A DNA stretch of 64,000 nt from Mustelus asterias (Eukaryota): contig NC_135822.1 in NCBI RefSeq assembly GCF_964213995.1, positions 25,854,001-25,918,000 on the forward strand. Reading direction: 5' to 3'. Below the pieces are notes generated by a model. That model searched no databases and had not been told where the DNA came from. It saw nothing but the letters and a program-made list of their open reading frames with translations. The stretch's first letter is position 1. Every line of letters begins with the position of its first letter. Made by a program: the position numbers and the translations under genes. Of the stretch, positions 1 through 62,885 are shown piece by piece.

Positions 1-142
1 TTCCATTGGATACACTAACCATGACTGCCACACATTAGCAAATTAGTGTCAACTAATGTCAAGTTTCAATCCTATGATCACTACTGAGATGATGGACAGG
101 AATTTAGTAGGAGCAGCAGTGGGGGTGACAATGAATTCAGGG

Positions 143-359
143 GACCAAAAGAGAAAATGCTGGAAAATCTCAGCAGGTATGGCAGCATCTGTAAGGAGAG
201 AAAAGAGCTGATGTTTCAAGTCAGCTTTGACAAAGGGTCACCTGGACTCAAAAGGTCAGCTCTTTTCTCTCCTTACAGATGCTGCCAGACCTGCTGAGAT
301 TTTCCAGCATTTTCTCTTTTGGTTTCAGATTCCAGCATCCGCAGTAATTTGCTTTTATT
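143..359 (+). mobile_element. Penelope-like (family A) fold-back mini-element
   Basis: Inverted arms 144-222 and 245-323, 36-nt unpaired tail 324-359, 12-bp TSD ATGAATTCAGGG (131-142, 360-371); contains a hammerhead-like motif. Confidence 0.8.
223..261 (+). ncRNA. Degenerate minimal hammerhead ribozyme (U3-A8 type)
   Basis: AGCT-TTGACAA-A-GGGTC-acctg-GACTC-AAA-AGGT-C-AGCT; GAA->AAA and ACGT->AGGT relative to the intact copy at 16581. Confidence 0.6.
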
Positions 360-691
360 ATGAATTCAGGGAATTTTAATTATGTGGGCCAAATCCACCA
401 GGAGGCTTGAAGTTGCATTGCTGTAACCAGAAGAGCAAGTGAGCAGACCATCATCCCATTAGTTTGGGCTGGATTAGAACCAAAGTCTTCAAAATCAAAG
501 AGCAGTCACAGTGCCCAATGCACTACACTACCCAATTTCCTAAAACAATGTTTCTACTTGAATCTAATGATTAAAAAGGTTTTATTTCTTTCAGTCAACA
601 ACATCTTAACTCCATGAAAGAAAACTGGGGGAAAGTATAACTCTCACATGACTGTGAGACAGCCAGTGTGTCCCGTGAAGCACTAGTTTAC

Positions 692-781
692 CTTTGCCAT
701 GGTTTCTTTCGTGCGCTGCATGGACTCCCGCTGCTGTTTCAGTTCCTCTTCCAGGGTTTGCCGCATCTGGTCCAGCTCCAC
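692..781 (-). CDS. CCDC30: CCDC30 coding exon 5 (VELDQMRQTLEEELKQQRESMQRTKETMAK)
   Basis: 90 nt, acceptor ccccacag, donor gtaaac, phase 0-0. Confidence 0.8.
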
Positions 782-1538
782 CTGTGGGGGAGAGAAAATG
801 TTCATGATGCGTGACTTGGTGAGACAAAAACAAGCACTTGGGACAATCAATCTGGCCTTACTACGACCCCCCTGTACAGTCGGTGAACATAGCTTCAGCA
901 TTATTCATCCCCTTAACCGGTCAATAAATGTGGATTCATTATAGACACTTGTTGCTGCGCAAACAGTGAGTATTTTGCCAATACCTATCCCATTCAGCAG
1001 ATCGTACTGTGAAATACACAAAGAAAATTCAATATCTCTATAAAAATAGCAGCTACAGGAGTGTAGCACCAGTACATGAAGTGTGCATACTTGCACTTCA
1101 TCAATTGAATTCTACGCTTTTCATTTCCATTATTCATGGAGAGGGAGGAGGTTTTTCTAGTCTGGCGGATAATGGTGATACTACTGTGTTATTTTGCATA
1201 ATTTTTCTCCTGACCCGTCTTCAACAATAATAAGCAAGCAGTAAAGCCAAAAAGCAATGCGTGAAACGGGATTAAATGGTGGAAACAAGCTGTCAGTGTG
1301 TGGAGCTCGAGTACACAATGCACATAGGCAGATTTTTCTTTCAGTGTTTCCTATTTTGTATTCACACTGTTTTTGTTATTTACGATAGTGACTGGAGGAA
1401 AATATACCCTCTGGGCACCAAGCACTTAGCAAAAAAATTACACATTTTGGAAAACTGTTCGAAATAAGTACTTTTGAATGAAACCGAGTTATTAAGTCGC
1501 TTGTGGCACGTCAGGGAGGTATTGTAACAGTTTCTTAC

Positions 1539-1729
1539 CTGCAAGTGTGTCTCACGGGTGCTCCCTGTGACACTTCGCGAATCCACATTTCTCTCAGCCA
1601 ATTCCAGCTTCTCCAGCAGCGTAGCTCGCTCTACGAGAAGGTAGGCTACCTGCTCACTTGGACCACTGTGCGCGATCTCTGCTAATCCTTCCTGATCCAA
1701 CATCTCTTCCACTTCCTTCACCTGTGTCT
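1539..1729 (-). CDS. CCDC30: CCDC30 coding exon 4 (ETQVKEVEEMLDQEGL...PSEQVAYLLVERATLLEKLE...THLQ)
   Basis: 191 nt, phase 1-0, donor gtaaga; acceptor tacag chosen to match the phase of the previous exon. Confidence 0.75.
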
Positions 1730-1944
1730 CTGTACATCCATCAGTCCAAAGTACCAGGGTTAGTCGTGAAATCTAATGAAGCTTTTGTTTTAAACTCATG
1801 ATATGCTCCTTCCAAAGAAGGCATCTACACTTCTTTACCAACCAATTTGGAACATACAAGGGAGGTACTCTGCTCAGCAGCCTTCTACTTAATGGCACTA
1901 GAGTCAGCCTTGGCTGAATGATGGATTGGAGCACAATCTTAACT

Positions 1945-2560
1945 GGCAGTTCAGTGTGGCATTGAGGAAGTGCTGCACAGTCAAATACATCACCTTTCAA
2001 GTAGATGCTCTCTCAGTTAATTGTAAAACATCTCATAGCGCAATTTGAGAGACCCGGGCTCGATTCCCGGCTTGGGTCACTGTCTGTGTGAAGTCTGCAC
2101 GTTCTCCCCGTGTCAGTGTGGGTTTCCTCCGGGTGCTCCGGTTTCCTCCCACAGTCTGAAAAGATGTGCTGGTTAGGTGCACTGGCCATGTTAAATTCTC
2201 CCCCAGTGTACCCAAACAGGCGCCGGAGTGTGGCGACTATGGGATTTTCACAATAACTACATTGCAGTGTTAATGTAAGAATACTTGTGACATTAATAAA
2301 TAAATAAACTGAAGAGCAGGGGAATTCTCTAGGGTGTCCTTGACAACAGTTATCCTTCAAGCATCATCACTAAAAACAGGTGAACTGATTAATCATTATA
2401 CTGCTGTTTGTGGGACTGTGCTGTGAGTAAACTAATTACTGTATTTGTCCATATTGCAACAATGATTACTGCTTCAAAATTACTTGGTTAGCCGTGAAGC
2501 ATTCTGAGACATCCTGAGTATGTGAAAGGTGCTATACAAATGCAAGTTATTTCCTTCTAC
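1945..2560 (+). mobile_element. SacSINE1/DeuSINE-like old SINE interrupted by a V-SINE
   Basis: Deu-domain-like motifs GAAGAGCAGGGGAATTCTC and GCTGTTTGTGGGA, tail ATACAAATGCAAG. Confidence 0.6.
2051..2310 (+). mobile_element. HE1/V-SINE-like tRNA-derived SINE, tail type ii
   Basis: V-domain GGGTTTCCTCCGGGTGCTCCGGTTTCCTCCCACAGT; tail GTGTGGCGACT...TAATAAATAAACT. Confidence 0.85.
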
Positions 2561-3085
2561 TCTTGAGCAATCTACCTATAGGCATGTTGAAAACCTCCTG
2601 CCCAATTTTCCTCTCACCCACTCACAGGGATATTTGACTTTCACTCACTTGGTGTTTCCTTGCTGAGCACCAACAAGACTGGGAACCAAAGGAGAGGGAA
2701 GAATAACGAAGCTGCTATTCCACCATTTCACCCTGTAACTCAGTGGATCTCCAGCATACTGCCCAATCAAACCAGCCAGAGGCAAAACTTTAATAAATAG
2801 GGTTAGAAAAATGGGCATTCAGGTGCATGTTATGCTGTAATGGATAGATGGTACGGCTAGTATTCTGGAAGAATGGACTAAATAGCCCTGGTCGTCTAAA
2901 CCTAACCTATGAAAGCAGAAACTATTGATGCTAGAAAACTGAAATTAAAAAGGAAAATGTTAGAAATATGGAGCTTGAAAGTAAAATAACAGAATAGCAC
3001 TTCCAACACAAGAGAATACGGATCAGACTCCCATTGTGAATCTTAATCTGCCTTTTCTCATTCTCATCTTGTTGGATCTGCTATT

Positions 3086-3214
3086 TGCTTTTCACAAACT
3101 GAGGACGTCTTAAAGTGCTTTACACCTAATTAAGTGCTTTTTTCACCTCCAAGTGGAATCACTGTGGTAATGTAGGAAATGCAGCAGCTAATTTGAACAC
3201 AGCTGCATCTGCAA
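3086..3214 (+). repeat. 129-bp direct copy of 3982-4110
   Basis: Only 2 mismatches between the copies. Confidence 0.9.
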
Positions 3215-3603
3215 GAAGATTGAGGGGAGATTTGATAGAGGTGTATAAGATTTTGATGGGTATAGATAGAGTGAATGCAAGCAGGCTTTTTCCACTGAGG
3301 CTAGGGGAGAAAAAAACCAGAGGGCATGGGTTAAGGGTGAAAGGAGAAAAGTTTAAAGGGAATATTAGGGGGGGGCTTCTTCACGCAGAGAGTGGTGGGA
3401 GTGTGGAATGAGCTGCCGGATAAAGTGGTAAATGCTTTTAGCATTTAAGAAAAACTTGGACGGGTTCATGGATGAGAGGGGTGTGGAGGGATATGGTTCA
3501 AGTGCAGGTCAGTGGGACTAGGCAAAAAATGGTTTGGCACAGACAAGAAGGGCCAAAAGGCCTGTTTCTGAGCTGTAATTTTCTATGGTTCTATGGTTCT
3601 ATG
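3215..3603 (+). mobile_element. CR1 LINE 3' fragment
   Basis: RRLRGDLIEVYKI...TRGH ORF2 C-terminus; (TTCTATGG)n tail. Confidence 0.9.
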
Positions 3604-3974
3604 TGTTTCTACCATTTTTTCCCAAAGTACAACTCTTGATAGCCAATGCAGTATTAAATTTAATGCGCAATACCAATAACTGTAGTTATAAATACAATAC
3701 CAGTATAAGGCTGCAGCTGGCAACATGACTATATATTACAGCCCCCTGATTGTAAATCACATTCTAGTCACTAGGTGGCATTCTGTGTACACACATCTAT
3801 AAAACTCTGCTGCATGTTAAAGTGCATTCTAAGGTATTCTACAGTCATTTTAGAAAATGTCCAGAAATCCATCAAAACTCCTAAACACCTTTTCGATCCG
3901 GCTGCTTATCGTATTGGAGTTCAACTCCATTCAATATAGTGATCGAGTGTTAGCAGATGGATTTAGAGAAAGTC

Positions 3975-4412
3975 TTTATCGTGCTTTTCACAAGCTGAGG
4001 ACGTCTTAAAGTGCTTTACACCTAATTAAGTGCTTTTTTCACCTCCAAGTGGAGTCACTGTGGTAATGTAGGAAATGCAGCAGCTAATTTGAACACAGCT
4101 GCATCTGCAAACGGTGTGATAGCAACTGGATCTTTTTTTTTGCTTTTGCTGACATTGGTTGAAGGATAAATATTGGCGAGGATACTGGAGAGGAATTGCC
4201 TGCTTTCCCTTTGAAAGAGGGCGACAGGATTGTTTACATTCACCCGAGAGAGCAGCCACTGCTTCAGGCTTCATCCAAGAGTGCAACTTTGAAGGTGCAA
4301 ATCTCCCACAGTACTGCACAGAAATGTCCGTCTAGATTTTACACTGACGTCATTACTGTGGTACCAGCAACCTTCTGATTTGGAGACAAGAGTGCTCGCA
4401 ACTGAGCCACCG
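3975..4412 (-). mobile_element. SacSINE1/DeuSINE-like old SINE
   Basis: GTTGAAGGATAAATATTGGC...AGTACTGCAC...CTGAGCCAC motifs. Confidence 0.65.
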
Positions 4413-5066
4413 TTATACACTTAAATCGGGCACCTTACAGCAATGTTATTCTGTCACTTCGGATCAATGTACATCCAAAACGACTTTGTATCAATGCAAA
4501 GTAATAACTGCAGCCGATCTTTTTGGCATTACGATATTACTGCAAATGGAAACATCTTTGATCAACTCAAGGTTGAAAACATTCTATTACAACATTAGTG
4601 TAAGCGGTTTTACGGTTGCAGTCATTCAGTTGCATGATATGAGCAAACATGCACACACTGGGTTAGAGCAATACTGAATTGAACTGCTGTACTCGATTGT
4701 ACCGTTTTCCACTTGATGATGTGGAAATGGAATAGCAAAAATCATATACAACAAAAACTCCATTCACTATATGAACATCTGGAATATATTCAAAATCATT
4801 CATTTGCATCCACTATCAACTTTTTCCATTAAAAATTGCCAAGTCCAGATTTAAAGGTGGATATTTAGTGATTTAAATATGTCACACCACATTTATAGCC
4901 CACAGTGCAAATACTGCAGCAATTACACTGTAGAATCTTACATGGGCAGTTTTCATCCTGAACATGGATATTCATGGTAGAAATATATAAAAAGGCAAAA
5001 TGGGATTGAATTATATCTGTGCGCCCAAAAATGATTATCTCCCATCCTCCAAGTCCTTTTTATCTT

Positions 5067-5187
5067 GATGTGGAGATGCCAGCGTTGGATTGGGTGGGCA
5101 CAGTAAGAATTCTCACAACACCAGGTTAATTTGGTATCACGAGCTTTCGGAGCGCTGCTCCTTCACCTGGTGTTGTGAGACTTCTTA
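5067..5187 (-). mobile_element. Penelope-like (family B) fold-back mini-element with truncated hammerhead
   Basis: Starts GATGTGGAGATGCC; short inverted arms; 11-bp TSD CTTTTTATCTT (5056-5066, 5188-5198). Confidence 0.8.
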
Positions 5188-5984
5188 CTTTTTATCTTTA
5201 AGCCAATACTCAGTCTTGACTCCGAATTTGCAATGCCACTAAAAATTGATTAAATATTTAAAACTTTCTTGCATCAATTATGAAACCATAAAGTTGAAGG
5301 TTTGGTGCCAATAAGTTTTAGAATACGGATGACCAGCTTCATGAAGAGACACAATGGTTGGACTTCCCACCTCAATGGCTACCATAGCACCGTGAGGGGT
5401 CACTAAGTGGAGGCCATCTTTAGGAGAGTTATACTGGACTTTCTCTCTCTCGTTCCAGTTTCTTATTTAGACCTCTCTTGTCCAAAAAGGTCATCTGTCC
5501 TCAGTCTGCCCATGGCCTGGGAAGACTCAAGAGGAGATGGGGTTGGAATGTAATTTGAATCTGTTCAATCCGTAAAAAAAAACCTTCAGTCAGGAACAAT
5601 AATCGACCTCAGCAACTGGGAGAGAAAATCTAAATTGTTATCCAGTGACCCATGCTGAAAAGTGGGCGAGTGTGTGGAGATCACATTTTCAGATATGAAT
5701 CCACCCCATGGGTCAAACAGCCTGCATTACTGTCTACACTCTTGTATGAAGGACAGACATTTGAGGGCAAGACACCAAAGGGCTACCAGTGGCTGCAAAA
5801 TTATTCCCCAGTAAGAGCCAATCAGGACAAGATGGTAATGAAAGCGAGAGCATATTTTTATTCAGATGGTCACATATTCAGTGTGTAGCTGAAGCAGAGA
5901 GAAACAAATCCATCTCACATCAGTTGTGGGCGGGGAGGGAGGGAGGGTGTAATACAAACAAAGTTGAAAGGTCAACATGCTGAC

Positions 5985-6105
5985 CTTGCTCCAACTTCAG
6001 CCGCTGTAGTTCCATCTTTAGCAGCTCATTCTCCCGCTCATATTCAGCCGTCATTGCCTCCCGCTCCTCCGACAGATTGCGGATGTGATCCACGTAATTC
6101 TCCAC
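5985..6105 (-). CDS. CCDC30: CCDC30 coding exon 3 (VENYVDHIRNLSEEREAMTAEYERENELLKMELQRLKLEQ)
   Basis: 121 nt, acceptor ttttttctgcag, donor gtcagc, phase 0-1. Confidence 0.8.
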
Positions 6106-6281
6106 CTGCAGAAAAAACACTATTCCCATGTCACTCCGTGGTTGAGCGGGTTATGTTTCAAGGGTGGGGGCAGGGGAAGGGCAGTTGTAAAGGGTGACAG
6201 GCGGCTTCTCTAAACCGTGACGCCACTACGCAGTGAGGGGGGAGGGTTCAGGTCATCCCAACAGCACTTGCATTTGATTTT

Positions 6282-6295
6282 ATATCCATGGCAAC
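6282..6295. promoter_or_regulatory. Candidate RFX X-box
   Basis: ATATCCATGGCAAC versus consensus GTTNCCATGGNAAC. Confidence 0.35.
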
Positions 6296-7472
6296 TTCAG
6301 CCTTTTCAAGCTATACTCATGTTTCAATATAATTTTACTTGACTTCAAAGATGGCTTTCATTGGGCAGATCATGATATTGTTTACAAATCTCACAAAAGA
6401 CATTAAAGGAGTTTATTTCACCACGTCGCGCAGCAGGGGGTTGATGAAGAGGATTAAGAATGCACATTGGCAACCATGAGAAAGGATCAGCGAGAGACGA
6501 AAGTTTGTTTTTGAGAGAAGACAGTCCTTTTTTTTGGTGAGGCTCCCCTAACTGACTGAGTTACAATACCACGGGGGACAGGACCAAGCAATCAAGGGTA
6601 CCAGATGTCTCAACCTGGGCTGAGTTCACCGATTTTGAATTTGTGAATGCTACTAGGGCAACATTTCCAATGTCGTTTTGGCCTCATTTACCCTGCACGA
6701 GGGACAAAGGATACAAACTAGATTGTCATCTATGACGTACAGCGTATACATGGATGTCAGATGAGGACAGGATAGGGCCCAACCCTTTGGACCATTGACC
6801 TGCTAACATTTATCGCACAGGCTTGGATGTGAGGAATGGTCAATGGGGTGAGATACGGGATAGTTCGCCATTATCTGCAAACCTGTACTCAAGGAAGAAT
6901 CTATCATTTCAGCGGGGGAGGGAATACTGCAGGGTAAAAAAAAAGTCACTGAAGCAGGATCTCATAAATTAGTCTAAGGGGGAAGCGACATAAAATCCAC
7001 ATTCCCAAACTACTTCTAAACTCGCTCCCTATGCAAAAATGAATGCCAATTCAAAGAACTGATATATGAGCCCCATATGACTGGTATGTTCATTTTTATT
7101 CCACAGATAAATTATGTGTGAGCTACCGTGCAGCGAAAGAATTCTTAATGACTGATAAGAAGGGACTCAGTTAATTTTCCTGTTAGACCTAACTCTGCAA
7201 GAGAGGAGACTGAGATGGTGTACAGATAACATCTAACGAGGGAATGAGAGAGATCAGTCAGTGGTCTCTGGGGAGGAAGAAATGAGACAAGCTAGCCCAC
7301 GCAGATTTGAAAACTTGCTATGGAAAATATTATTCATGCATATCTCTAATCTGGCCAAAGTTTCAGGCTGTAAATATGGTGGTTAAAAGGCGGCCAGTCA
7401 CACACAAACACGATTTCATTTTTAAAATCTCACAAGATATCAAAAATGCACCACTTTGAGGACAGATCTCAC

Positions 7473-7658
7473 CTCCTTCATCTCGGAGACCTGCTGCTGT
7501 TGCATCCCTTCCAGATCCTTCATGGTGGCTTGCAGAGTGCCTTCAGCCCGCTGGTATATACGCCACAGGTGACAGAGGTGCTCATCGGCAGAGCAAGCTT
7601 CTGTGTCCAGTCCATCTTCCTGCAGTTTGTTCAGTATATCTTCCAGCTCCACCTTCTC
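7473..7658 (-). CDS. CCDC30: CCDC30 coding exon 2 (EKVELEDILNKLQEDGL...QQQQVSEMKE)
   Basis: 186 nt, acceptor tttcttttctcttcag, donor gtgaga, phase 0-0. Confidence 0.8.
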
Positions 7659-8911
7659 CTGAAGAGAAAAGAAATTGCAGGAATCAGAAACAGTGTGCTG
7701 AACGGAAGGGAGAGGGAACGCTACGTATTAAGAAGTCAGAGTCACAGAGTACTGGCAATTTCAGAAATGTAACTTATACAAAAGTAATTCCAACAAAAGT
7801 TGTACTACCGCCATTATACAGAACTATAGCAAACGTACAGCACAGAAACACGACATTCAGTGTCTGACTGGCCAACAAAAGCAAACAAAAAAATAACTAG
7901 CTGCTTATTTAATCCCACTTTCCCAAGTTTGTTCAGACTTTCTGCACATTAGATTTTATGGGTTCTTTTTAAGTTGTTGCTTTTGCTTTTGGCACTGTCC
8001 CTCTATTCCCACCTCCTACAGCACCTTTCACTATTTATTTCCCGGCTGAGATTGTTATCCAGACAGGTCTTGGCCACAGCAGGGAGCTTCCAAATTCAAT
8101 AACAGTTCACAAAGTTACAAAAAAAAAGTGGTTCACGACTGTGAAACATTTCCAAATGTCACAAATAATCAAAAGAACATTGCATGTGCTGTCAGCTAGT
8201 TTCATTATACACAGCTGTCTTTCAGGGCTCAGTTATGATGCCCTCATGAGACACTCAAATGCCCATCGGAATATCAAAAAGTATTCTGCATTGTCTGAAC
8301 TTGGACCACAAGCTTCTCAACCTCCAATTCAACTCCCCTTCTAGTTACTTGATCTATTACCACCGCCACTTTCTTTCTCCAACACAGTAACATCCTCTGG
8401 TACCTCCTCCTTATTGTTAATCATCTGGAGATTTCAGTTATGCAATCATTTCTAACCAGCCTCCCTTTTTTCAATCTGCAAAACTACAACTTAAACAAAA
8501 TGCCAATACCATGTTGTCATCTGTTCAAAACCTCACACCCCTCTCTCATGGCTGCCAGCCAGCTCCTGTGGCTCTCTGTGCTCTGACAAATTTGAGCTTT
8601 AAGATCCTCATCCTTGCCTCAAATTCCCTTCCAGTCTTGCCCACTCTACATCACCATCTCTTCCAGCCACAGTTCCTTGACCATAACATCGGGGGTTAGT
8701 TATTCTCACCATACCAGTGCTGACCTTCGAACTCCATCAGCAGCCACTGCTCTCTGAAACTGGCTCCCTCAATACGGGTTCATCTCATCATCTTCCACTA
8801 GCTTTCAAAACTCTCTTGCATTCACTCCTCTGTCCAACCCCCCTCAAGATGTGGAGATGCCGGCACTGGACTGGAGTAAACACAGTAAGAAGTCTCACAA
8901 CACCAGGTTAA

Positions 8912-9346
8912 CCATAGAAGAAACCATAGAAACCCTACAGTGCAGAAAGAGGCCATTCGGCCCATCAAGTCTGCACCGACAACAATCCCACCCAGGCCCT
9001 ATCCCCATATCCCTACATATTTACCAGCTAATCCCTCTAACCCTCATATTTACCCACTTATCCCTCTAATCTACGCATCCCGGGACACTAAGGGGCAATT
9101 TAGCTTGGCTAGTCAACCTAACCCGCACATCTTTGGACTGTGGGAGGAAACCGGAGCACCCGGAGGAAACCCACGCAGACACGGGGAAAATGTGAGTGGA
9201 GAGAGCATTAAACACAGGTTAAAGAGATGTGTATTGTCTCCAGACAGGACAGTTAGTGAGATTTTGCAAGCACAGACAGTGACCCAAGCCGGGAATCGAA
9301 CCCAGGTCCCTGGAGCTGTGAAGCAGCAGTGCTATGCTACCGTGCC
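8912..9346 (-). mobile_element. HE1/V-SINE-like SINE (tail type i) nested in the Penelope arm
   Basis: 6-bp TSD GGTTAA (8906-8911, 9347-9352); V-domain; CR1-like tail. Confidence 0.85.
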
Positions 9347-9382
9347 GGTTAAAGTCCAACAGGTTTATTTGGTAGCAAAAGC

Positions 9383-9414
9383 CACTAGCTTTCGGGCTGC
9401 TCCTTCGTCAGGTG
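9383..9414 (-). ncRNA. Minimal hammerhead ribozyme with damaged stem II
   Basis: CAC-CTGACGA-A-GGAGCAGCCC-GAA-AGCT-A-GTG; 3-nt deletion in stem II. Confidence 0.55.
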
Positions 9415-10153
9415 AGTGGGAATTCTGTTCACAAACCGGGCATATAAAGACACAAACTCAATTTACAAAATAATGATTGGAAGGCGAGTCTTTACAGGTA
9501 ATCAAGTCTCAAAGGTACAGACAATGTGAGTGGAGAGAGCGTTAAGCACAGGTTAAAGAGATGTGTATTGTCTCCAGACAGGACAGTTAGTGAGATTTTG
9601 CAAGCCCAGGTAAGTCGTGGGGGTTACAGATAGTGTGACATGAACCCAAGATCCCGGTTGAGGCCGTCTTCATGTGTGTGGAACTTGGCCATCAGTCTCT
9701 GCTCAGCTACGACAGCGGATGAATGAACACCGCTCGACAATCACCAGGCAAGAGTGTTCTCTTCCTGTTGGGGAACACTTCAACGGTCACGGGCATTCGG
9801 CCTTTGATCTTCGGGTAAGCGTTCTCCAAGGCGGCCTTCACGACACACGACAGCGCAGAGTCGCTGAGCAGAGACTGATAGCCAAGTTCCACACACGAGG
9901 ACGGCCTCAACCGGGATCTTGGGTTCATGTCACACTATCTGTAACCCCCACGACTTGCCTGGGCTTGCAAAATCTCACTAACTGTCCTGTCTGGAGACAA
10001 TACACATCTCTTTAACCTGTGTTTAACGCTCTCTCCACTCACATTGTCTGTACCTTTGAGACTTGATTACCTGTAAAGACTCGCATCCCAACCATTATTT
10101 TGTAAATTGAGTTTGTGTCTTTACATGCCCTGTTTGTGAACAGAACTCCCACT

Positions 10154-10192
10154 CACCTGACGAAGGAGCAGCAAGCGCTCCGAAAGCTAGTG
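10154..10192 (+). ncRNA. Minimal type I hammerhead ribozyme (Penelope-type)
   Basis: CAC-CTGACGA-A-GGAGC-agcaagc-GCTCC-GAA-AGCT-A-GTG; full core, palindromic stem III, predicted cleavage after 10189. Confidence 0.8.
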
Positions 10193-11338
10193 GCTTTTGC
10201 TACCAAATAAACCTGTTGGACTTTAACCTGGTGCGGTGAGACTTCTTACTGTGTTAACCCCCCCTCAAAGCAGGATAAAACAATTTTGAATCATTCACTC
10301 TCACAAGTCTTTCACACCCATTGGACAGATTCCATTGCTGTCAGGGAAGTCTTTTGTATAAAAGCACTTCAGTGAGGAACCGAATAGCCTGATAGCTTCC
10401 ATGTAGCTCCCTCCCCACCCCACCCAAACCCCCGCCAGAAAACAAGGAAGCTGTCCAAAAGTCAGCAGCAGCAGCAACTGTCACAACTGCTACTCACACC
10501 AACTGTCACCGGAGTACTCTTGGCTGAAAATCTGGTAAAGAAACGGTAAGTGAGATCCCGAGAATGTTAGAACCAATTTGATGTTGTGAGGGGTGAAGAC
10601 TTGAAGTTATTCTAGAAGGACGAGATGTGCTCGGCTAGACAACCTTTGTCAACCATAATTATCTTGTGAACAGGGGGTGGAATCAAGGCTGCATGGGGTG
10701 AAATTGTCAGGAGCGTTTAATGGGCTCATAGTGAACCAGTTACCTGTTTTACTCTGCAAAAGAGTTTTTTCTGTTGCCTCAATCTTGTCCTATTGGTCGA
10801 CTTACCTAGAATCCCAATCTACCTTGGTGTTTTTATGAGTCTTTTGAGGTGTTGAAGTAATGTAATGAGGTTGTGTTGCATAGTTGATATTGAAAATCTA
10901 TTGTAATGAGAAACAACAATCGGCAGAGTCTTCAGACTTGCTGATTAAGAAAACACATAATTGTGAACCATTCAATCTTTGTCCTGTGGTCTCTTAAAAG
11001 TTGTATTACACAGAGACAGCTGAGGGCTCCAACTCTTCTTACTGACAGAGAAGACACATGTTGTTCAGTCAGTCCACTTTGTTGCTCAGGAAACATTTGA
11101 TCTTTCTACCCTGTGAGATTACTGATAAAATAGAATCCATTTACACCCCTTGTATGAAATAATTATATTGACTAATATCAAGCACCCAGACAGGAGAAAG
11201 TATTCCACTTCTTCTATTGAATGGAAAAGATCTTTTGCAGTTTAAGTAATCTCCACAACCACAGGGCATCCCAAAGAACACCTGAAGTGTAATCATCTGC
11301 AGTGAAACTGGTTTTAAATCTGGTCTACCACAGCCTGT

Positions 11339-11409
11339 TCCGAAAGCTAGTGGCTTTTGCTACCAAATAAACCTGTTGGACTTTAACCTGGTGTTGTGAG
11401 ACTTCTTAC
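11339..11409 (+). mobile_element. Penelope family B fragment (3' half of the hammerhead)
   Basis: TCCGAAAGCTAGTGGCTTTTGCTACC...CTTCTTAC, near-identical to 10179-10249. Confidence 0.75.
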
Positions 11410-14300: not shown

Positions 14301-14301
14301 T

Positions 14302-16580: not shown

Positions 16581-16619
16581 AGTTTTGACAAAGGGTCATC
16601 TGGACTCGAAACGTCAGCT
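16581..16619 (+). ncRNA. Minimal hammerhead ribozyme, U3-A8 core variant with GUC cleavage triplet
   Basis: AGTT-TTGACAA-A-GGGTC-atctg-GACTC-GAA-ACGT-C-AGCT; predicted cleavage after 16615. Confidence 0.7.
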
Positions 16620-16679
16620 CTTTTTTCGCCTTACAGATGCTGCCAGACCTGCTGAGATTTTCCAGCATTTTCTCTTTTG
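16581..16679 (+). mobile_element. Penelope family A fragment
   Basis: Matches 223-321; degenerate TSD AGCTCACAACCA / AGCTCACGATCA. Confidence 0.8.
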
Positions 16680-22925: not shown

Positions 22926-22928
22926 AAA

Positions 22929-24965: not shown

Positions 24966-25114
24966 AAAATAAAACAAAATACTGCAGATGCTGAAGATCT
25001 GAAATAAAAACAAAATAGACAAGAAGTCATACAGGCTCGAAATGTTAACTCTGTTTCTCGCTCCACAGATGCTGCCAGATCTGTTGAGTTTTTCCGGCAC
25101 ATTTTGTTTTTTGT
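24966..25114. mobile_element. Old Penelope family A-like fold-back relic
   Basis: AAATACTGCAGATGCTG...CTCGAAATGTTAAC...CACAGATGCTGCCAGA. Confidence 0.55.
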
Positions 25115-25319
25115 TTGGGTGAGGACAGGATTGGGTTTAGCTAGTTCCAGTGGTCAAACAGTCTGCCAACACTCAATGTCTAGATCCAGAGACTGACTAC
25201 TGAGGGAATCTACCTATTGAAGTGGGAATCAACATCTTCAGGAGAGATGGAGGGGAAAAGTTCAAAAAAAAAGTGCTGGATGAACTCAGCAGGTCTGAAG
25301 AAAGAAAGAGAGTTAATGT

Positions 25320-27362: not shown

Positions 27363-27777
27363 TCTACCGGTTGAGGGAGGCTGAGCTCTGGCTTTTCTGA
27401 TGCTCATTTGGACTCTGAGCTGTTGTCGTATTCAACTGTAAATAGATGGACTGAGACATTCTTCCCCCAGAAAGGGGACACATCCATCCAGTTCAGACTG
27501 ATGACCTGAGTCGCCCCCCCCCCCCCCCCCCCAAAATAGTTTATCTGTGAAACCAGTTTCAGGTAGTCTGTTTATTCATTTCCAACATGCAAGGCTCCAC
27601 AACACACACAAATCCCCTTGTTTGGTAAAAGCAAAATACTGTGGATATTGGAATCTGAAACATAAACAGTAAGATACCGTCAGACCTACTAAAATTTCCC
27701 AGTATTTTCTGTTTTTATTCCCTTGTTTGATATTCAGAAGACTACAGGGGCCTTTATTCTGTAACAAATGTCTACAT

Positions 27778-37696: not shown

Positions 37697-37865
37697 TAAA
37701 GGTGCACTTATCAGCACCCCAGAACTAACTTTAATGGAGCTCTGTGGGGGATGTGCTGTAGTGACCCCTGGTGGTAGCAATGACATTCTGCAAGAAGTAA
37801 ATTGAACTGAAATACAACTTTAAGCAAGATGCCATTTACATGTCGTTCTTTTAAGGATAAGCACT

Positions 37866-37978
37866 GTAAGAGTTTTAACAACACCAGGTTCAAGTCCAAC
37901 AGGTTTATTTGGTAGCAAATGCCATTAGCTTTCGGAGCGCTGCTCCTTCGTCAGATGGAGTGGATATCTGCTCTCAAA
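37866..37978 (-). mobile_element. Penelope family B fragment
   Basis: Matches the family B pseudo-LTR. Confidence 0.8.
37922..37958 (-). ncRNA. Minimal type I hammerhead ribozyme, intact
   Basis: CCAT-CTGACGA-A-GGAGC-agc-GCTCC-GAA-AGCT-A-ATGG. Confidence 0.8.
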
Positions 37979-39722: not shown

Positions 39723-40209
39723 GTAAGTGTAATCATTTCTCATTTTGAACCTGCTTCAACAGGAAAAGAAAGGTACCCTCCATGCATTGTACCCCTTACT
39801 TTGTGGACAGATCTCTTTATTTTTGTCGCATGTAATGCACAGAGAGCTTCTCGCCACCTTGTGAATTCAGTGGAATTAAAAATAGGGAATGTATAACAGA
39901 TCAGTTATCACCGGAAAGCGAAAATGGGTTCACGCTTTGGATGGCAACCCTTCATCAGAACTGACAATACTGCAATCACTCCTGTTCTCTGTGAGCTTAT
40001 GTACACTAGGCTGTGCTCATTCAGATGTCCCTTGGCTGGTTTCTGTTCTTGGAATGTGAGACAAGATGGTTTAATGAACACTGGTGAGAATGGACTTGCA
40101 GTCCTCTTACATGTTCAGTAGCATCGTGGATTTAATGCAGGTTTGCTCACTTCTTTGCATTTCCTTTGCATGTTTTAGTGTCTGCTTCTCTACCCTCTTA
40201 TTTAGCCAT

Positions 40210-40400
40210 AATGTGGAGATGCATGCATTGGACTAGGGTGGGCACAGTAAGAAGTCTCTCAACACCAGGTTAAAGTCCAACAGGTTTATTTGGAATCACG
40301 AGCACTGGAGTCCACTCACATGATGAAGGAGCAGCGCTCCGAAAGCTTGTGATTCCAAATAAACCTGTTGGACTTTAACCTGATGTTGTGAAACCTCTTA
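40210..40400. mobile_element. Penelope family B fold-back mini-element with a C3A hammerhead (40316-40352, plus strand)
   Basis: Inverted arms about 40246-40303 and 40345-40400; degenerate TSD CTCTTAT(T/C)TAGCC. Confidence 0.8.
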
Positions 40401-40415
40401 CTCTTATCTAGCCCA

Positions 40416-45270: not shown

Positions 45271-45317
45271 TGTCTCATCTCTTTCCACATGTCTGATTTC
45301 CTGGTTCTCATCTATAG

Positions 45318-55204: not shown

Positions 55205-55294
55205 GTACGTGAAGTCCGTAGAGAGGAACATCGATATGGCGGTGAGCTGTCTGGAATCCGTGCTGGAGTTAAGAAGAGCATCAAGCTTCAGTGA
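55205..55294 (+). CDS. UTP3: UTP3 exon 16 (VREVRREEHRYGGELSGIRAGVKKSIKLQ*)
   Basis: ttttgcag acceptor, TGA at 55292-55294. Confidence 0.97.
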   Translation, partial: VREVRREEHRYGGELSGIRAGVKKSIKLQ

Positions 55295-55376
55295 TCTTGC
55301 TGCCTCCTGTCGAACATCTGCAACTTGGAAGCCCGGGGTATATCCACTCTCTCTTTGTAATGTATTTATAGAGTTT

Positions 55377-55382
55377 AATAAA
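55377..55382 (+). terminator. UTP3 polyadenylation signal
   Basis: AATAAA 83 nt after the stop, upstream TGTA elements, downstream GT-rich tract. Confidence 0.7.
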
Positions 55383-56224
55383 GAATTTGTACATTTTTAC
55401 TGTGTTTATAATCCATTGGTAAAGCTGTGGACTAATGGAGTTTGTAATTACAGGCTATTAAAATACTACACCCAAGTTATGGATGGCATACAATCTCAAT
55501 CTACATTAGGAGTTGCAGCCTAGAAATTCCATTGTGTGTATTTTTTGTATCTTCAATCTGTTGTTTTAATGGAGGCATCAACCTGTTTGTTAACTGGTTA
55601 ACATCTCCATCAAAATAGATGGTAAAGTTTAATGTGTGTTGCAACAACACACGGCAATTTCCAGGCTTTGCATCATTTTCTGCTCAATTGCTGCTGGAGG
55701 TGATATACCCATCATTCTGAATGTATTATTGGTTTGTAAATGTGCTGTGCCACAGAATAAGAGGTATTCCTAAACAAATTGCCAGGAAAACATTATTACA
55801 TTTCCTGGCAGTTGTTTGAGGTGACAGTGGGGCAAGTCAATTGCTGTTTACCATCCTTCACATTGCATAATTTCTGCTGGATTGCTGATATTGAAGGTGG
55901 CTGTTCTTGAGTGACTTCCATGCTGTGCTGTATGGAGGCACTAGTGCAAATTAAAAATGCTGTTCTCATTATAAAGAACAGAAAATTTTATTTAATAGAG
56001 AATTTAAGAATGAACAGAACATGGTAATTTTGAGAGGTTCAAACACCTTTTTATAGTGGAGTCATGAGGTTAATCAGTTATTCCCAAATCTTTATAGTTG
56101 GAGGTGACAGCTAAGCCCAGTCTTGTCCTGAACTTTAATCAATACACTTTCCAATAGCAGCTGAATGAGCAGAAACTCTTCAATGATTTAGCCACCCAAG
56201 CAATGGTAGTGTAGGGTAAATTAA

Positions 56225-56459
56225 AAGTATGTCATAAGTAGGCTTATATTAACACTGCAATGAGGTTACCGTGAAAATCCCCGTCACCACATTCTGGCGC
56301 CTGTTCGGGTACACTGAGGGAGAATTTAGCACGGCCAATCCACCTAACCAACACATCTTTTAGACTGTGGGAGCAAACCCCACGGACGGTAACCCAAGCC
56401 GGGAATCAACCCGGGTCTCTGGCGCTGTGAGGCAGCAGTGCTAACCACTGTGCCACCGT
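56225..56459 (-). mobile_element. V-SINE, tail type ii, internally deleted
   Basis: Reverse copy. Confidence 0.8.
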
Positions 56460-56580
56460 TGTTAGTTTCAATGAAAGGTATATAAACTTTGGCTGAAAAG
56501 GACTGGATTTAGTCTAGAAAGTGAATGTTGATAGCTAACAGAATAGAGACAGGCTCTTTTCTACAATGAATCAGTACCTG

Positions 56581-56858
56581 AGGCGGCACAGTAGCTAGCA
56601 CTGCTGCCTCTCAGTTCCAGGGACCTAGGTTCGATTCCCAGCTTGGGTCACTCTGTGTGGAGTTTGCACATTCTCCTCCCACAGTCCAAAGATGTGTGGG
56701 TTAGGTTGATTGGCCATGCTAAAATTGCCCCTTAGTGTCCTGAGATGCATAGGTTAGAGGGATTAGTGGGTAAATGTGCAGCGATATGGGGATTGTGGTT
56801 GGTGCAGACTCGATGGGCCAGATGGCCTCTTTCTGCACTGTAGGGTTTCTATGATTCT
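56581..56858 (+). mobile_element. V-SINE, tail type i
   Basis: tRNA head and CR1-like tail. Confidence 0.85.
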
Positions 56859-57452
56859 ACAGGAGAAGAGGGAATGTGATGAATATGCAGAGTTTTAATC
56901 CCACCTGACTGAATTGAATGAACATTTGCAACAACAAGGTATCACATGCCTGTAAATGTACTGATGTGGATTGGCAAGAGTTACCAAAAGAGAAATCACA
57001 AATGGTATAATTAATATACATCACTCAATTTTATTTCAATTTGGGATCAAGAAATCCCTACAACTTTTTCTGCTCGTGTTTGTGAAAGCTGGATCTCTGC
57101 TACAAAATTTGGTTCTAGTTATCCAGTGAATTCACCAACAATATTGATAAGTTTTTTTTCTTGTTCCAGTAATACAGCTGCAATTATTGAGTCCATCAAC
57201 CACCGGCACCAGAAATTAATTCAAAAGATACAGATTAAATAGCAATCACACCATGCCAAGTGCCATCACTCATTGTAGTTATGTGCCTTTGACTTACAGA
57301 AAAGTTCTGTATTTCCCATTCCATAGCACACACTTCTCTGTGGTACCTTTTTATCAGTTCATGTAGGCTCATGGAGGAAATTTTAATGTAGTCAGAAGCC
57401 AAGTCTAATAGTTAGCCCAAACTACATACATTAGTGCATGTTTTTAAAAACC

Positions 57453-57492
57453 TTTATTAAGCATAATGCCAGATTTCCCAGCTGGCTTTATT
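57453..57492 (-). terminator. Candidate PPCS polyadenylation signals
   Basis: AATAAA on the minus strand at 57487-57492 and 57453-57458; further candidates at 57030-57035 and 55987-55992. Confidence 0.5.
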
Positions 57493-57570
57493 CACAAATG
57501 CCAAGTTTTTTTTAAAAAAAGTAACGTTTTAATAGCTTGTTCCATTTTTATACAATTAACTTATCTTGCA

Positions 57571-57912
57571 TCATGGGTCACATGTAGGATTGTTGCTTTT
57601 CTCAATAAAATTAGTGTGGCAGTCACTCAAGTGTGTCACGATCTTCTCTTCAATTTCATGGTGTTGCTTCACTTCATTTTCTGAAAGTGCCAGGTCAGTT
57701 TGAGAATCGGCAGTTACTATGACAACAAACACCCTCCGCGTTTCAAGGACGTTGGCAACCACAACCTGATGTCTGTAAGTTTCTAAAGCTTTACGTGCTC
57801 GTGCAACCAGCTGTGAAGGATCAGTCTCCAACTTGAAAGATGTAACAAATGCCTGAGGAGCCCAGTCTTTCACGAGAGGGGTAAGCATCTTGGGAACTAT
57901 TTGCATAGTTAG
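57571..57912 (-). CDS. PPCS: PPCS exon 3
   Basis: Acceptor ttttttaaaag; LTMQIVPKML..SFKLETD..; stop TGA. Confidence 0.95.
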   Translation of the reverse strand, partial: LTMQIVPKMLTPLVKDWAPQAFVTSFKLETDPSQLVARARKALETYRHQVVVANVLETRRVFVVIVTADSQTDLALSENEVKQHHEIEEKIVTHLSDCHTNFIEKSNNPTCDP

Positions 57913-58177
57913 CTTTTAAAAAACAAATCAGATTCTGACATTCAATAAGCCTAAGAAAACAAAGCTTGCATTATATGTACACATACAATTGCAAGACTTT
58001 CTCCAAGAACAGCCACTTTGTTTCAAAAAATTCTCTATACTTCAAGAGGCAGTCCCCTTAATGGAAAATAGAAAATTGCACAAATGTAACCCCTTACCCA
58101 GTGGGCATGAGAGGACTTCCACTAACGGTTAAACAAATAGTCTTCATAACACTAAGGATAGTCCATCTCTCACTCAC

Positions 58178-58281
58178 CTGCAGAGGGCTAACACCTGATT
58201 GGATTTTGTGTTCTGGCATCTCCGAGGCTGGAATGAAAAAATCCGACACGGCTGCTGCAAGGTAAAACATAGCTTTTGGTC
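58178..58281 (-). CDS. PPCS: PPCS exon 2
   Basis: ttctgcag / gtgagt, phase 1-0; [13 protein letters not shown]. Confidence 0.95.
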
Positions 58282-59419
58282 CTGCAGAACAAAAACAGTT
58301 ACAAATCAGCGACTTCATGATGCTATGTCCTTTAGAAATATAAAGGCTACTTAAGTTAAACAATAGATCTTCCTGTCCATTGAGTAATTGGACTTGTAAA
58401 TTTTAATAGAGCCAACAGTATACAAGTTATTTTTCATCCTGCAGAATAGATGGAACCAATTACATCCCAGTTGCAGGCATTAGTTCTCTGCTCTCTTTAG
58501 CATTGGTCTACCTAGCTAAAAGTCAGGACTCTTGGCCTCTATTGGCACAAAATGTAAGCATATAATGAAGTCAAAAGCTTCAATTGTTTGTGGCTGTAAT
58601 GAAGTGACTCCGCTTGTTCTTGTACTAAAAAGAGTATTTCATGACACATCTGATTGGAATCTCAGGGAAAGTGGGCAGACTTTAATGCACATTTAATGCT
58701 ACTGAAGCGAAATGTATTTTCAGCTGTAATGAAAAGCATATTAAAGTTAATCTCCCAGTTCATGTTAGTGTGTAGAACACGATACTCTGTCTGCAAATCT
58801 GAATAGAACAAACAGCTTTCAACAAAATATCCTCCAGTTTTGACTAGGCTGTATTTTTTCTGAAGTATTATCCTCTGGTACATGCCCCAAGACAGCTGTG
58901 CTGCATTATTGGAGGTGCCATCTTTCAGGTCATTGATAAACTGAGTTTCCATCTTCTCCAGTGGATGCAAAAGATCCCATAGACTATTTCTAAGAGGTCT
59001 CCCCAGTGTCCTGACCAATATTTATCCCTCAATATTAATTTTTTAAAAACTCATGTACTGAAAACATAGCTGCCAATGATGGAGCAATTCATATACAGGG
59101 TACACAAAAGGCCAGAACTGGAGGAATGCAGAGATTTCCGATGGTAGTTGGGCTGAAAAAAGCTACATTGGAATTTGGAAACAAGGATGAGAATTTCAAA
59201 ATTACCATTCCTCAACAGAGTCAGTGCAGGTCAGCAAACACAGGGGTGAGGGTGAATATGATTTCATGTTAGCACACAGGTAGTGGATTTTTGCACGAGC
59301 TTAGGTTTAACAAGGGTAGAATGCAGAGTATTTATTTTGGTAGGAAGAATGAGAAGAGGCACCATAAAATAAAGGATACAATTTTAAAGGGGTTGCAGAA
59401 GCAGAGATAGCTGAAGATA

Positions 59420-60965
59420 TGTGCAGGAATAAGCCATTCAGCCCATCAAGCCTGCTCTGCCATTCAATATGATCATATTGGTCATCCACTTCAACACCTT
59501 TTTCCCGATGTCCCTTAGCAATTGTTATTTAGAAAATGTCAATCTCTGCTTTAAACATACTTAATGACTGAGCTCCCACAGCCCTCTCTGGGTACAGATT
59601 TCAAAAGATTCACAACCCTCAAGAAGAAAATCTCCTTATCTTGGTCCTAAATGCCTTCTCTTTAGCTGGAAATGTGTCCCCTGGTTCTAGGCTTCCCAAC
59701 CTGGGGTAACATCATATCTGCATATATTTTGTAGGTTTCAATAAGATCATTCTTCAAAACTCTACAGGTCCAGTTTCCCCAATCTCGTAACACAGTGCTG
59801 CCATTCCAGGAACAAGTTTGGTGAATGTTTGTTGTGCTCCCCCTGACAATTTCCTTCCTAAGGTGAGGGGACCAAAACTGCACACAGTATTCCAAGTGTA
59901 GTCTAACCAAGGTTCCATACAATTGAAGACTACTCAAATTCTCTCAAAAAAAGGCTGGCAAAAAATTTGCTTTCTTAATTGCTTGCTACCCCTGCACATT
60001 AGTTTTCAATGACTTATTGCACAAATTGTTGAAGGTGGCAGGGCAGTTTGAAAAAGCAGTTAAAGGCATATGGGACTCCGGGGTTTATTAGTAGAGGCAT
60101 ACAAGTATAAAAGCAAGGAAGTTATGGTGAACTTTTATAAAACCTCTTACTCAACTGGACTATTATGTCCAAATCTGGACACCAATACTGGGAAGGATGT
60201 GAAGGAATTAGAAACAAGATTTGAGGGATTTCAGTTATTTGGACAGATTGGAGAAGCTGAGAATCATAGAATCCTACAGTGCAGAAAGAGGCCACTCGGC
60301 CCATCGAGTCTGCACCAACCACAATCCCACCCAGGCCCTATCCCCATATATTTACCCACTAATCCCTCTAACCTATGCACCCTGGGAGACTCGGGGGCAA
60401 TTTAGAATGGCCAATCAACCTAGCCCGCACATCTTTGGACTGTGGGAGGAAACCGGAGCACCCGGAGGAAACCCACACTGACTCAGGGAGAATGTGCAAA
60501 CTCCACACAGACAGTGACCCGAGCCGGGATTCGAACCCAGGTTTCTGGAGCTGTTCATGAAGCAGCAGTGCTAACCACTGTGCTACCGTGCCACAGCTGA
60601 GGCTGTTCTCCTTGGAGATGGTTGAGAGAAGATTTGCTGGAGATGTTTAAAATCATGAGGGGCCTTGACAAAGAGGAAGAAACTGTTCAAACAGTTTAAG
60701 GATCGAGAAGCAATAAAAAAGGTGAATGGCAAAACAACATAAAACATGAGGAAAAACTTCTGTGCAACGACTGGTCAGGATCTGGAATGCACAGTGGTGG
60801 AGGCTAATTTCAATCATGGCTTTCAAAATGGAATAATTACCTGAAGAGATAATTTTACAGGGAAAAGCTAGAGGACGGGGGCAAGCTGTGTTTCTCTTTG
60901 CAGGCTGCTGACACAGACACAATAGGCTAAATGGCCTCCTGCGCCGTAAATATTTGCGTTCTGTA
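59420..60965. mobile_element. CR1 fragments (minus about 59420-60020; plus about 60020-60965) with a nested minus-strand V-SINE at about 60263-60592
   Basis: LEYCVQFWSPHLRK on the minus strand; YKSKEVMVNFYK on the plus strand; SINE V-domain. Confidence 0.75.
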
Positions 60966-61082
60966 GTCAGAAGCTCATCTCAAGGTTAAATACGACATCA
61001 AATGAACAATCTAGTTGGGCCTCAGAGTAGCCAGGAAGAGCGTTGGTGGATAGGGAACAAAGTTTCTGGGAAGGACAGAATA

Positions 61083-61620
61083 CATAAGAACATAAGAAAT
61101 AGGAGCAGGAGTAGGCCATCTAGCCCCTCGAGCCTGCCCCGCCATTCAATAAGATCATGGCCGATCTGCAGTGGATCAGTTCCACTTACCCGCCTGATCC
61201 CCATAACCCCTAATTCCCTTACCGATCAGGAATCCATCTATCCGTGATTTAAACATACTCAACGAGGTAGCCTCCACCACTTCAGAGGGCAGAGAATTCC
61301 AGAGATTCACCACCCTCCGAGAGAAGAAGTTCCTCCTCAACTCTGTCCTAAACTGACCCCCCTTTATTTTAAGGCTGTGCCCTCTAGTTCTAGCTTCCTT
61401 TCTAAGTGGAAAGAATCTCTCCACCTCTATCCTATCCAGCCCCTTCATTATCTTATAGGTCTCTATAAGATCCCCCCTCAGCCTTCTAAATTCCAACAAG
61501 TACAAACCCAATCTGCTCAGTCTCTCCTCATAATCAACACCCCTCTGGTATCAACCTGGTGAACCTTCTCTGCACTCCCTCCAATGCCAAGCCAATACAA
61601 TGGCTTTTGCCTTCCTAATT
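61083..61620 (-). mobile_element. CR1 LINE 3' fragment
   Basis: LEFRRLRGDLIETYKI..NFFSRRVVNLWNSLP; (CATAAGAA) tail. Confidence 0.9.
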
Positions 61621-62310
61621 TTAGTTGGAAGAAATCTCAGTTACACATTCAATTCAAATATAAAATGCATATATTTGAAAATTTCACACATCCATCCTCA
61701 TTTCACTAAAATCTTAGTAAATGTTTAATATGTGGATGTCACTGACACAGTCATCGTTTATTGCCCATTTTTAATTATCTTTGGTCACCACACTGAATAG
61801 AACTGAGTGGCTTGCTAGTCCATTTCAGAAACTGTTAAGTAACACTGCTATGGGTCTCGAGTTATAGATCAGCCACACACCAAGGACAGCATATTTCTTT
61901 CCCTAAAGAACATTATTGAAACGGATGAGTTTTTATAACAATCTGGCAGTTTTACACTCACCAATTATTGATATTACAGCTTTAATATAAATCCATTTGA
62001 AATTCCCCAATCACCTTGGCAGGAATTGAAACTCATGTCTCCAAATTGTTAGGCCAGGCCTCTGACTTACTACAGAGGAGCATATTAAACAGGTGCTATA
62101 ATAGGCCATTTGGCTCTTTGAGCCTGTTCTGTCATTCCACAAGATCACGGCTCATCTTTTTACCTTACTTTCACCTTCCTGTGCTATCCCCATAATTCCT
62201 TAGTATCCAAAAATCTACTGACCTCCCGTCTTGAAAATACGCAATGACTCAGGCCTCTGAATGAAGAAATTTCTCTCCAACTCAGTCCTAAACGACTGAC
62301 CCATTAATCG

Positions 62311-62462
62311 GATGTGGAGATGCCGGCGTTGGACTGGGGTAAACACAGTAAGGAGTTTAACAACACCAGGTTAAAGTCCAACAGGTTTATTTGGTAGCAA
62401 AATTAGGCTTTTGCTACCAAATAAACCTGTTGGACTTTAACCTGGTGTTGTTAAACTTCTTA
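62311..62462. mobile_element. Penelope family B near-perfect hairpin mini-element nested in a CR1
   Basis: 55-bp arms 62348-62402 and 62409-62463, 6-nt loop, 37-nt tail, TSD CCATTAATCG(GA). Confidence 0.85.
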
Positions 62463-62885
62463 CCATTAATCGGAGACAGTGATCCTCTCCACCCCCTCCC
62501 CCAAACAGACTTTGCAGCCAGAGGAAATTTTTTCTCAACGTCTGCTCTGTTGAGCCCCTGAAGAGTTTTATGTGGTTAATTGATCTTGGCTGTTTTGAAA
62601 TAAATGGAGCCATTCCATGGATTGTTAGAGGAAGTCCATTTGTTCCTGTCTGTTTCCTCTAATATTTTGGGACCTGTTCGTAGATCTGGAAAGGTGCTGA
62701 ATCGATACAAAATATACAATGTCATTGTGTGATCAGTAGGCTAGGCAAACAATTGCAGCTCAAAACTGGATGGATCATCTCTGCTGAATTAACACACAGC
62801 GGTATATATTTACAGATTAACCAGTGTAGCTGGAGGTGGGTGACCGCTATGCTACTATACCCGAGTATTTGCTTCATTTCCCTAC

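Follow-up and report, generated by a model that had tools for sequence, protein, structure and literature searches.

The window analysed here, a 64,000-nucleotide (nt) stretch of the Mustelus asterias genome (contig NC_135822.1, positions 25,854,001 to 25,918,000), contains five insertions of Penelope-like elements (PLEs), one of a family that we call A and four of a second family, B. A preliminary description had placed them at 143-359, 5067-5187, 8848-10255, 40210-40400 and 62311-62462, and all five were confirmed at these positions, each consisting of inverted arms with a tail on one side and bordered by a target-site duplication (TSD). The duplications measured 10-13 nt, and the tails were 30-37 nt long and present at one end only; in the TSD search, a score of at least 8 was reached by chance in 1.5% of 600 mismatched pairs of left and right flanks. 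These insertions are one-off, 5'-truncated, head-to-head PLE products, probably formed when each of the two ends left by a staggered cut in the target primed reverse transcription, at two different start sites on the element RNA. The resulting stubs are dead ends and not a self-propagating element.

Target sites, tails and paired arms

The sample comprised the 60 loci with the best score to family B probes, the first 90 exact matches to the family B tail on C1 and 70 exact matches to the family A tail, together with the window and the 200 kb adjoining it. Among exact-tail copies, 58 of 97 in family B and 24 of 70 in family A were inverted and flanked by a TSD, after two duplicates had been dropped from each set; with relaxed matching, these counts were 129 of 216 and 31 of 108. 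The remaining tail copies had no detectable TSD, consisted of one arm, or formed larger or tandem units.

The target of family B was found to be symmetric, TG-N2-[12]-N2-CA. A centred TG-N16/17-CA was present at 84 of 115 family B sites, as compared with a background of 5.3%, and at the 60 sites with the N16 spacing the edge of the TSD lay mostly 2 nt inside each half (35/60 and 42/60). The same test revealed no TG-N16/17-CA motif at family A sites. Both outer ends of the insertions had 1-3 nt in common with the duplicated target. In particular, an overlap of at least 1 nt into the central 12 nt was observed in family B for 38 of the 53 short ends and for 41 of the 54 tailed ends examined (p<1e-9), and the mean overlap at the outer ends was 1.8 nt, compared with 0.64-0.77 in two simulations. 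In the window, the insertion at 62311 is flanked by the 12-nt TSD CCATTAATCGGA, the final 2 nt of which are common to the TSD and the element; the right copy (62463-62474) is followed by CA at 62477-62478. The duplication around 8848-10255 measures 12/13 nt with the exact core CCCCCCTCAA, and its target is TG-N17-CA.

One end of each family B insertion lay at a far site, with the tail included, and the other at a near site approximately 37 nt upstream. All inverted TSD pairs that were counted had one tailed and one short end (111/111 in family B and 25/25 in family A), and the same polarity was found in pairs outside the tail-probe selection (38/38 and 5/5). Across the 3.68-Gb genome, the core-end pattern of family B had 107,742 matches; as judged by eye, the first 100 listed comprised 58 tailed and 42 short ends. 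Additionally, a copy at approximately 1480-1800 of locus L058 carried a tail at both ends and lacked a TSD, and its flanking genomic DNA was also inverted; its appearance is that of folded-back chromosomal DNA and not of a normal insertion.

Tail length had been described as fixed across the two families. It proved to be constrained and non-random but not fixed, as the tail measured 30-45 nt in 113 of 129 inverted copies of family B and 26 of 31 of family A, with medians of 37 and 39 nt, respectively. For 47 clean family B copies with cuts set by the target motif, the median was 37 nt (SD 3.9, range 30-50), and the positions of the two ends were uncorrelated (rho 0.02). Tail length is set by the distance between two end sites, each of which scatters, and does not act as a ruler. 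A one-end tail of 30-40 bp has been published for PLEs (PMC8557442; PMC3846280; PMC8969392), as has a 34-bp repeat (PMC2377424), and in the account of PMC11167929 the tail equals the interval between two in vitro start sites of the reverse transcriptase (RT).

That account, which concerns another PLE, also describes a protein that cuts and extends both strands in vitro and starts at two adjacent sites (PMC11167929). A shared priming or fold-back mechanism had been proposed for the present insertions; shared priming stood, and was already published in the same source, whereas fold-back did not hold as the sole route. In the mechanism that we propose, a dimer would cut the symmetric target with a stagger, and one target end would prime at the far start site on the element RNA while the other would prime at the near start site. 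The two complementary DNAs (cDNAs) would then grow toward each other and be joined by host end-joining. The template would usually be one RNA, or two RNAs of one source copy; if one RNA is used twice, the cDNA of the near site would be displaced by the far primer. The 5' edge of the hammerhead ribozyme described below may coincide with a fixed 5' end of the RNA, most likely a transcription start, at which the cDNAs would run off; this would explain why the 200-250-bp class is common. The symmetric target, the outer-end overlap and the existence of self-standing short ends fit priming from both target ends.

The main rival is fold-back, in which a single cDNA begins at the tail, folds over and serves as its own template up to approximately 37 nt from its start, or in which a hairpin is resolved by the endonuclease (EN), with later deletion and gene conversion blurring the symmetry. 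Both versions are in print, as self-priming (PMC3846280) and EN-mediated resolution (PMC8557442), and the use of two start sites in vitro (PMC11167929) stands against them. For the analysis of inner ends, 107 of the 129 family B copies were kept; those dropped had a filler of more than 45 nt, lay at a reference edge or had a tail-only arm. Sixteen short-end copies had their own TSD; approximately 11 of these had no tail remnant, and in the other five a tail stub of 8-30 nt, shorter than the complete tail, lay opposite a longer short arm. Where the arms differed by more than 30 nt, the short arm was the longer one in 18 of 107 copies and the tailed arm in 17 of 107. At locus L157, a short arm of 3 kb faced a tailed arm of 290 nt. 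The hammerhead loop variant was the same in both arms of 25 of 28 convergent pairs and differed in 3 of 28 (by eye, with TSDs mostly unchecked), and in 5 of 79 pairs each arm was closer to other copies than to its partner; the mixed pair at L025 showed nine non-CpG differences over 199 nt. Such pairs, a minority, would be templated by two different RNAs. The self-standing short ends with their tail stubs, the copies with an extended short arm and the mixed pairs exclude fold-back as the sole route, unless later deletion and conversion have been extensive, and we consider fold-back unlikely as the explanation of the insertions.

Several observations nevertheless weigh against double priming. 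The inner ends of the two arms were coupled (Spearman 0.71, n=107), as fold-back predicts; they lay within 10 nt of each other in 52 pairs, compared with 16 by permutation, and within 15 nt in nine of 36 long pairs, compared with 0.66 expected. The arms differed at no more than one diagnostic site in 77 of 99 pairs, compared with 17% of random pairs, a similarity that fold-back likewise predicts. One element, L237, had tail sequence at both ends and was missed by the count of 111/111, and 87 of 216 tail matches in family B and 77 of 108 in family A were not inverted with a TSD and so lie outside most counts. Later deletion at the palindrome centre together with gene conversion could be the source of asymmetric and mixed arms. 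Double priming is proposed from the genomic copies, with the in vitro precedent in another PLE. Other observations weigh against a transcription start as the point of run-off. A family B lineage that has no TATA box shows the pile-up at this inner site too; in family A, the boundary has the look of a 3' splice site as well, with a pyrimidine tract and AG before it; and in D. virilis, as described in PMC4209133, the 5' end of helix I is where an intron stops. Under double priming, the polarity, the coupled inner ends and the matching variants fit a single RNA that serves as template for both cDNAs, two RNAs being used in a minority of cases. Rare variants across the two arms comprised 10 in common and 224 not in common, a count that does not distinguish a single template RNA from a single source copy.

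Junctions, short forms and the inner boundary

The centre of the insertions carries microhomology or filler, and the fillers resemble polymerase-theta joining. The preliminary description had raised the recurrence of mini-elements with identical junctions at many loci; 138 distinct junction strings were found among 140 elements. The junctions of the window copies at 62311 (exact search) and 40210 (up to two mismatches) each occurred once in the genome. The 143 junction had four genome matches at up to two mismatches, and the 5067 junction had nine; of these, six carried the tail on their long arm and three on their short arm, and the variants differed. A palindromic GAATTC junction was found at 171 loci; the 15 viewed span several loop variants and short-end positions, and both arms shared the loop variant in all 14 comparable pairs, which, together with the recurrence of such perfect palindromes, speaks for fold-back. 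Since the recurring 5067-type and GAATTC junctions differ in variant, polarity or short end, recurrence reflects favoured joints formed repeatedly.

Both families contain a minimal hammerhead upstream of the tail, consisting of the core, helices I and II and a palindromic 15.2-16.2, with the U3-A8 variant in family A. Minimal PLE hammerheads of this kind, without helix III and with a palindromic 15.2-16.2, an extra base after A9 and the U3-A8 variant, are described in PMC4209133, which also notes dual hammerhead motifs 100-700 bp apart on opposite strands; the present ones are of the same kind and are known as predicted motifs from sequence. An Rfam scan of the window returned no hammerhead family and only sub-threshold matches to microRNA (miRNA) hairpins. 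In family B generally, as at window 9396-9475, the antisense strand of the hammerhead matches the splice-donor consensus with CAG/GTGAGT, and AATAAA lies on the sense strand 45 nt before the short end; both signals are thus placed on both strands of every inverted copy and offered to host genes.

The 120-220-bp forms had been proposed to act as non-autonomous, ribozyme-bearing mini-elements; in this reading, a retrozyme-like element would itself be transcribed and retrotransposed. Short forms are indeed common, as 47 of the 129 inverted copies in family B and 11 of the 31 in family A measure at most 220 nt, some junctions recur (at 171, 9 and 4 loci), and non-autonomous PLE derivatives are described in PMC8557442 and bioRxiv 10.64898/2026.07.22.740005. 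However, nearly all junction strings were distinct, two window junctions were unique genome-wide, and the recurring 5067-type and GAATTC junctions mixed tail polarity, variants or short-end positions. A motif scan found an intact hammerhead core in only 19 of 47 short family B copies, two of 11 short family A copies and none of the four short copies in the window, whose strands fold into one long hairpin. Retrozymes are head-to-tail tandems; no head-to-tail tandem array with complete hammerheads was present in the window, where the arms are head-to-head. We consider such a mini-element very improbable and reject the claim, which is already largely refuted.

The inner ends of the arms were not evenly distributed. 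Among family A arms, 39 of 48 had no upstream sequence, and most started at AGC, 31 nt after TATAAAT. In family B, inner stops were found at 2.9 per 100 nt at -86..-110, as compared with 0.4-0.55 elsewhere, a 5-7-fold difference. This pile-up fits run-off at the RNA 5' end. An extra G, as expected from a cap, was not enriched at the family A boundary (5/39). At the predicted ribozyme cleavage site, two young arms started at the site or 1 nt after it, among 40 inner ends at -75..-45. A small palindrome of the CTGTT..AACAG type was also observed at -119..-106 of the family B pseudo-long terminal repeat (pLTR), just upstream of the pile-up, and it is kept in lineages with and without the TATA box.

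The pile-up may alternatively represent a splice junction, a stop of the RT at an RNA structure or trimming of the palindrome after insertion, a reading of this boundary only, which we regard as possible, short of probable. The splice-like family A boundary, the D. virilis precedent and the lineage without a TATA box argue for it, as does the breadth of the family B peak (-87 to -109). For splicing, however, no common upstream exon was found among the 39 family A arms, which were preceded by a short filler, the TSD or the other arm, and the family B boundary had no AG acceptor. An RT halted by a stem is expected to stop at the 3' foot and not at the 5' edge, which weighs against an RT stop. 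A stronger form of the double-priming account, to which we give an even chance, is that PLE integration is an obligate two-primer reaction, in which a dimer makes a cut with a 12-nt stagger at a site of two-fold symmetry, one target end is assigned to the far start site and the other to the near one, and the cDNAs run off at the transcription start of the pLTR in the manner of retroviral strong-stop DNA. If this geometry is true, the tail, the inverted pLTR and the short palindromes would all follow from it, and the reaction would usually use one RNA with strand displacement and sometimes two RNAs.

The two families and the features of the window

The identification of the insertions as Penelope-like was borne out by a frame with RT and GIY-YIG domains in family B. 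Locus L157 holds a near-full copy with an open frame of 915 codons (L157:4207-6951), in which a profile search revealed RVT_1 (E 4e-10) followed by GIY-YIG (E 3e-5). The translation, inspected by eye, contains DKG, VVYLIRC..C...WYIG (CCHH, with two Cys between GIY and YIG) and later NEH and EHF, and the linker CX4CxxC before the endonuclease reads CHSNLCKTC in family B and CNRRRCNTX/C in family A. According to PMC8557442, CCHH and DKG define C-terminal EN+ PLEs, and a CX2-5CxxC linker marks Neptune/Nematis; by these motif definitions, applied to the predicted protein, family B is a Neptune/Nematis-type PLE. The remaining features of an EN+ PLE were also found, namely a pLTR with a hammerhead, an inverted or tandem arrangement, a 30-40-nt tail and a TSD. 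The two families, initially thought to be unrelated, are distant homologues: only decayed coding frames were found for family A, and their RT and EN regions are 32-40% identical to the family B protein. In the genome, a 27-nt tail probe of family B had 59,140 exact matches and a 35-nt tail probe of family A had 939. Family B copies that read through the tail run on into an ATG and the frame. A young family B subfamily (L157, L116, L127, L158 and L134) has a 60-nt duplication-insertion at the frame end in common, and family B copies were found nested in family A copies at L094, L178, L179 and L206.

Table 1. Positions of the insertions and their parts in the window
Feature	Position	Strand	Details
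Left TSD, family A	131..142		ATGAATTCAGGG; exact, 12 nt; right copy 360-371
Family A insertion	143-359		tail 36 nt (324-359)
Family A short arm	144..222	-	inverted element 3' end, no tail; from arm alignment
Family A tailed arm	223..359	+	starts at AGC boundary, 5' edge of minimal hammerhead (U3-A8 type)
Left TSD, family B	5056..5066		CTTTTTATCTT; 11 nt; right copy 5188-5198
Family B mini insertion	5067..5187	-	tail 5067-5101; no hammerhead core
Left TSD, long family B insertion	8836..8847		right copy 10256-10268, with one extra C
Family B tailed arm, long insertion	8848..9712	-	tail ~8848-8878 (about 30 nt); interrupted by a short interspersed element (SINE); inner end approximate
SINE, later insertion in tailed arm	8912..9346		435 nt; GGTTAA duplicated (8906-8911 / 9347-9352)
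Family B short arm, long insertion	9713..10255	+	GIY-YIG coding end, 3' region, pLTR; inner end approximate
Intact minimal hammerhead core	10157..10189	+	motif scan; the only one among the five insertions
Left TSD, family B	40195..40207		13 nt, 1 mismatch; right copy 40401-40413
Family B mini insertion	40210..40400	-	tail 40210-40245 (~36 nt); hammerhead C3 mutated
Left half of 62311 target	62297..62312		TG, 2 nt, 12-nt TSD (62301-62312)
Family B mini insertion	62311..62462	-	tail 62311-62347 (37 nt); too short for hammerhead

The family B copies in the window start with GATGTGGAGATG in three cases and AATGTGGAGATG in one. The family A insertion has a mutated GAAA box in its hammerhead. The tail of 5067-5187 measures 35-37 nt, depending on the assignment of a 2-nt overlap, and the tailed arm of this copy has a private 18-nt deletion. 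The 1.4-kb length of 8848-10255 is partly due to the SINE in its tailed arm, which we take to be HE1-like. The middle of this SINE (~90 nt, 9189-9278) is replaced by family B 3' sequence with 2-3 differences from both neighbouring arms, possibly a local templated patch or conversion.

Two other origins of the insertions were considered and rejected. An assembly artefact was ruled out by the TSDs, the arm mismatches and the unique fillers, and a miniature inverted-repeat transposable element (MITE) or DNA transposon was ruled out, as the arms correspond to the 3' terminus of an RT element, are asymmetric and lie within TSDs of 12-15 nt. Assembled contigs of public runs over 62180-62600 showed no empty-site allele among the joints listed, and the runs may be of the assembly's own sample; these contigs contained approximately 180 different central joints, and one contig crossed the right border.

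Single arms ending at the short site, with no TSD assigned to them, were observed at 11339-11409 (B), 16581-16679 (A) and 37855-37978 (B), and two older family A-like inverted stubs outside the first list lie at 24968-25116 and 27626-27715, the latter flanked by a CCCTTGTTTG repeat. On the minus strand, 62722-63546 is a GC-rich first coding exon with a match to the DFP family (PF04127), presumably of PPCS. The 62311 insertion lies approximately 260 nt beyond the end of this frame and is probably intronic.

Comparison with known systems

In L1 twin priming, a second target end primes a second cDNA, and the products resemble the present copies in their inversion, central microhomology and TSD. 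In L1, however, the two segments are free of overlap, and the position of the second priming site varies. In contrast, the arms of the present copies are overlapping inverted repeats with two fixed start sites.

The architecture itself, an inverted pLTR with a 30-40 nt tail and a TSD, is already described for PLEs and is not new. The Pen2a_Av element of Adineta vaga, as presented in PMC3846280 and in the scheme of PMC8557442 (fig. 2), has the same head-to-head 3' ends, a tail at one end and a TSD around the unit, and insertions of this type and the shark copies both show palindromes at some junctions (PMC3846280). Unlike the Pen2a_Av type, the copies described here are very numerous, are mostly stubs and, in family B, have a symmetric sequence-specific target. 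The papers on the Pen2a_Av type propose self-priming or resolution, whereas the present data favour double priming. The double-priming account, the polarity rule and the spaced palindromic target were not found in the open-access papers that were searched and may appear in subscription papers or the supplements of PMC11167929. The steps that make tandem and inverted PLE structures are called unresolved in PMC8557442 and PMC11167929, and the tens of thousands of young copies constitute a natural experiment on this integration step. The predictions that they yield are exact, namely a single start site for each target end, a symmetric 12-nt stagger, 1-3-nt pairing, mostly one template and a fixed RNA 5' end. 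For annotation, the stubs mimic MITEs and miRNA hairpins and should be labelled as PLE by-products.

The non-LTR retrozymes described in bioRxiv 10.64898/2026.07.22.740005 are similar to the stubs in being short, non-coding and pLTR-related with a type I hammerhead. Each retrozyme unit carries a ribozyme, and the units form head-to-tail tandems, whereas the window stubs are head-to-head and variable, and the core is often missing.

Poseidon PAc of Anolis carolinensis (PMC11167929) is alike in that two adjacent RT starts bracket the tail, both strands are cut and extended, a dimer is predicted and the hammerhead lies upstream of the start sites. In PMC11167929, we found no assignment of the two start sites to the two ends of a single inverted insertion. 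PAc prefers ATT targets and is described as starting without homology, while family B uses TG-N16-CA with an overlap of 1-3 nt. In family B, the likely start codon marks the end of the tail, which in PAc lies 111-118 nt inside the frame.

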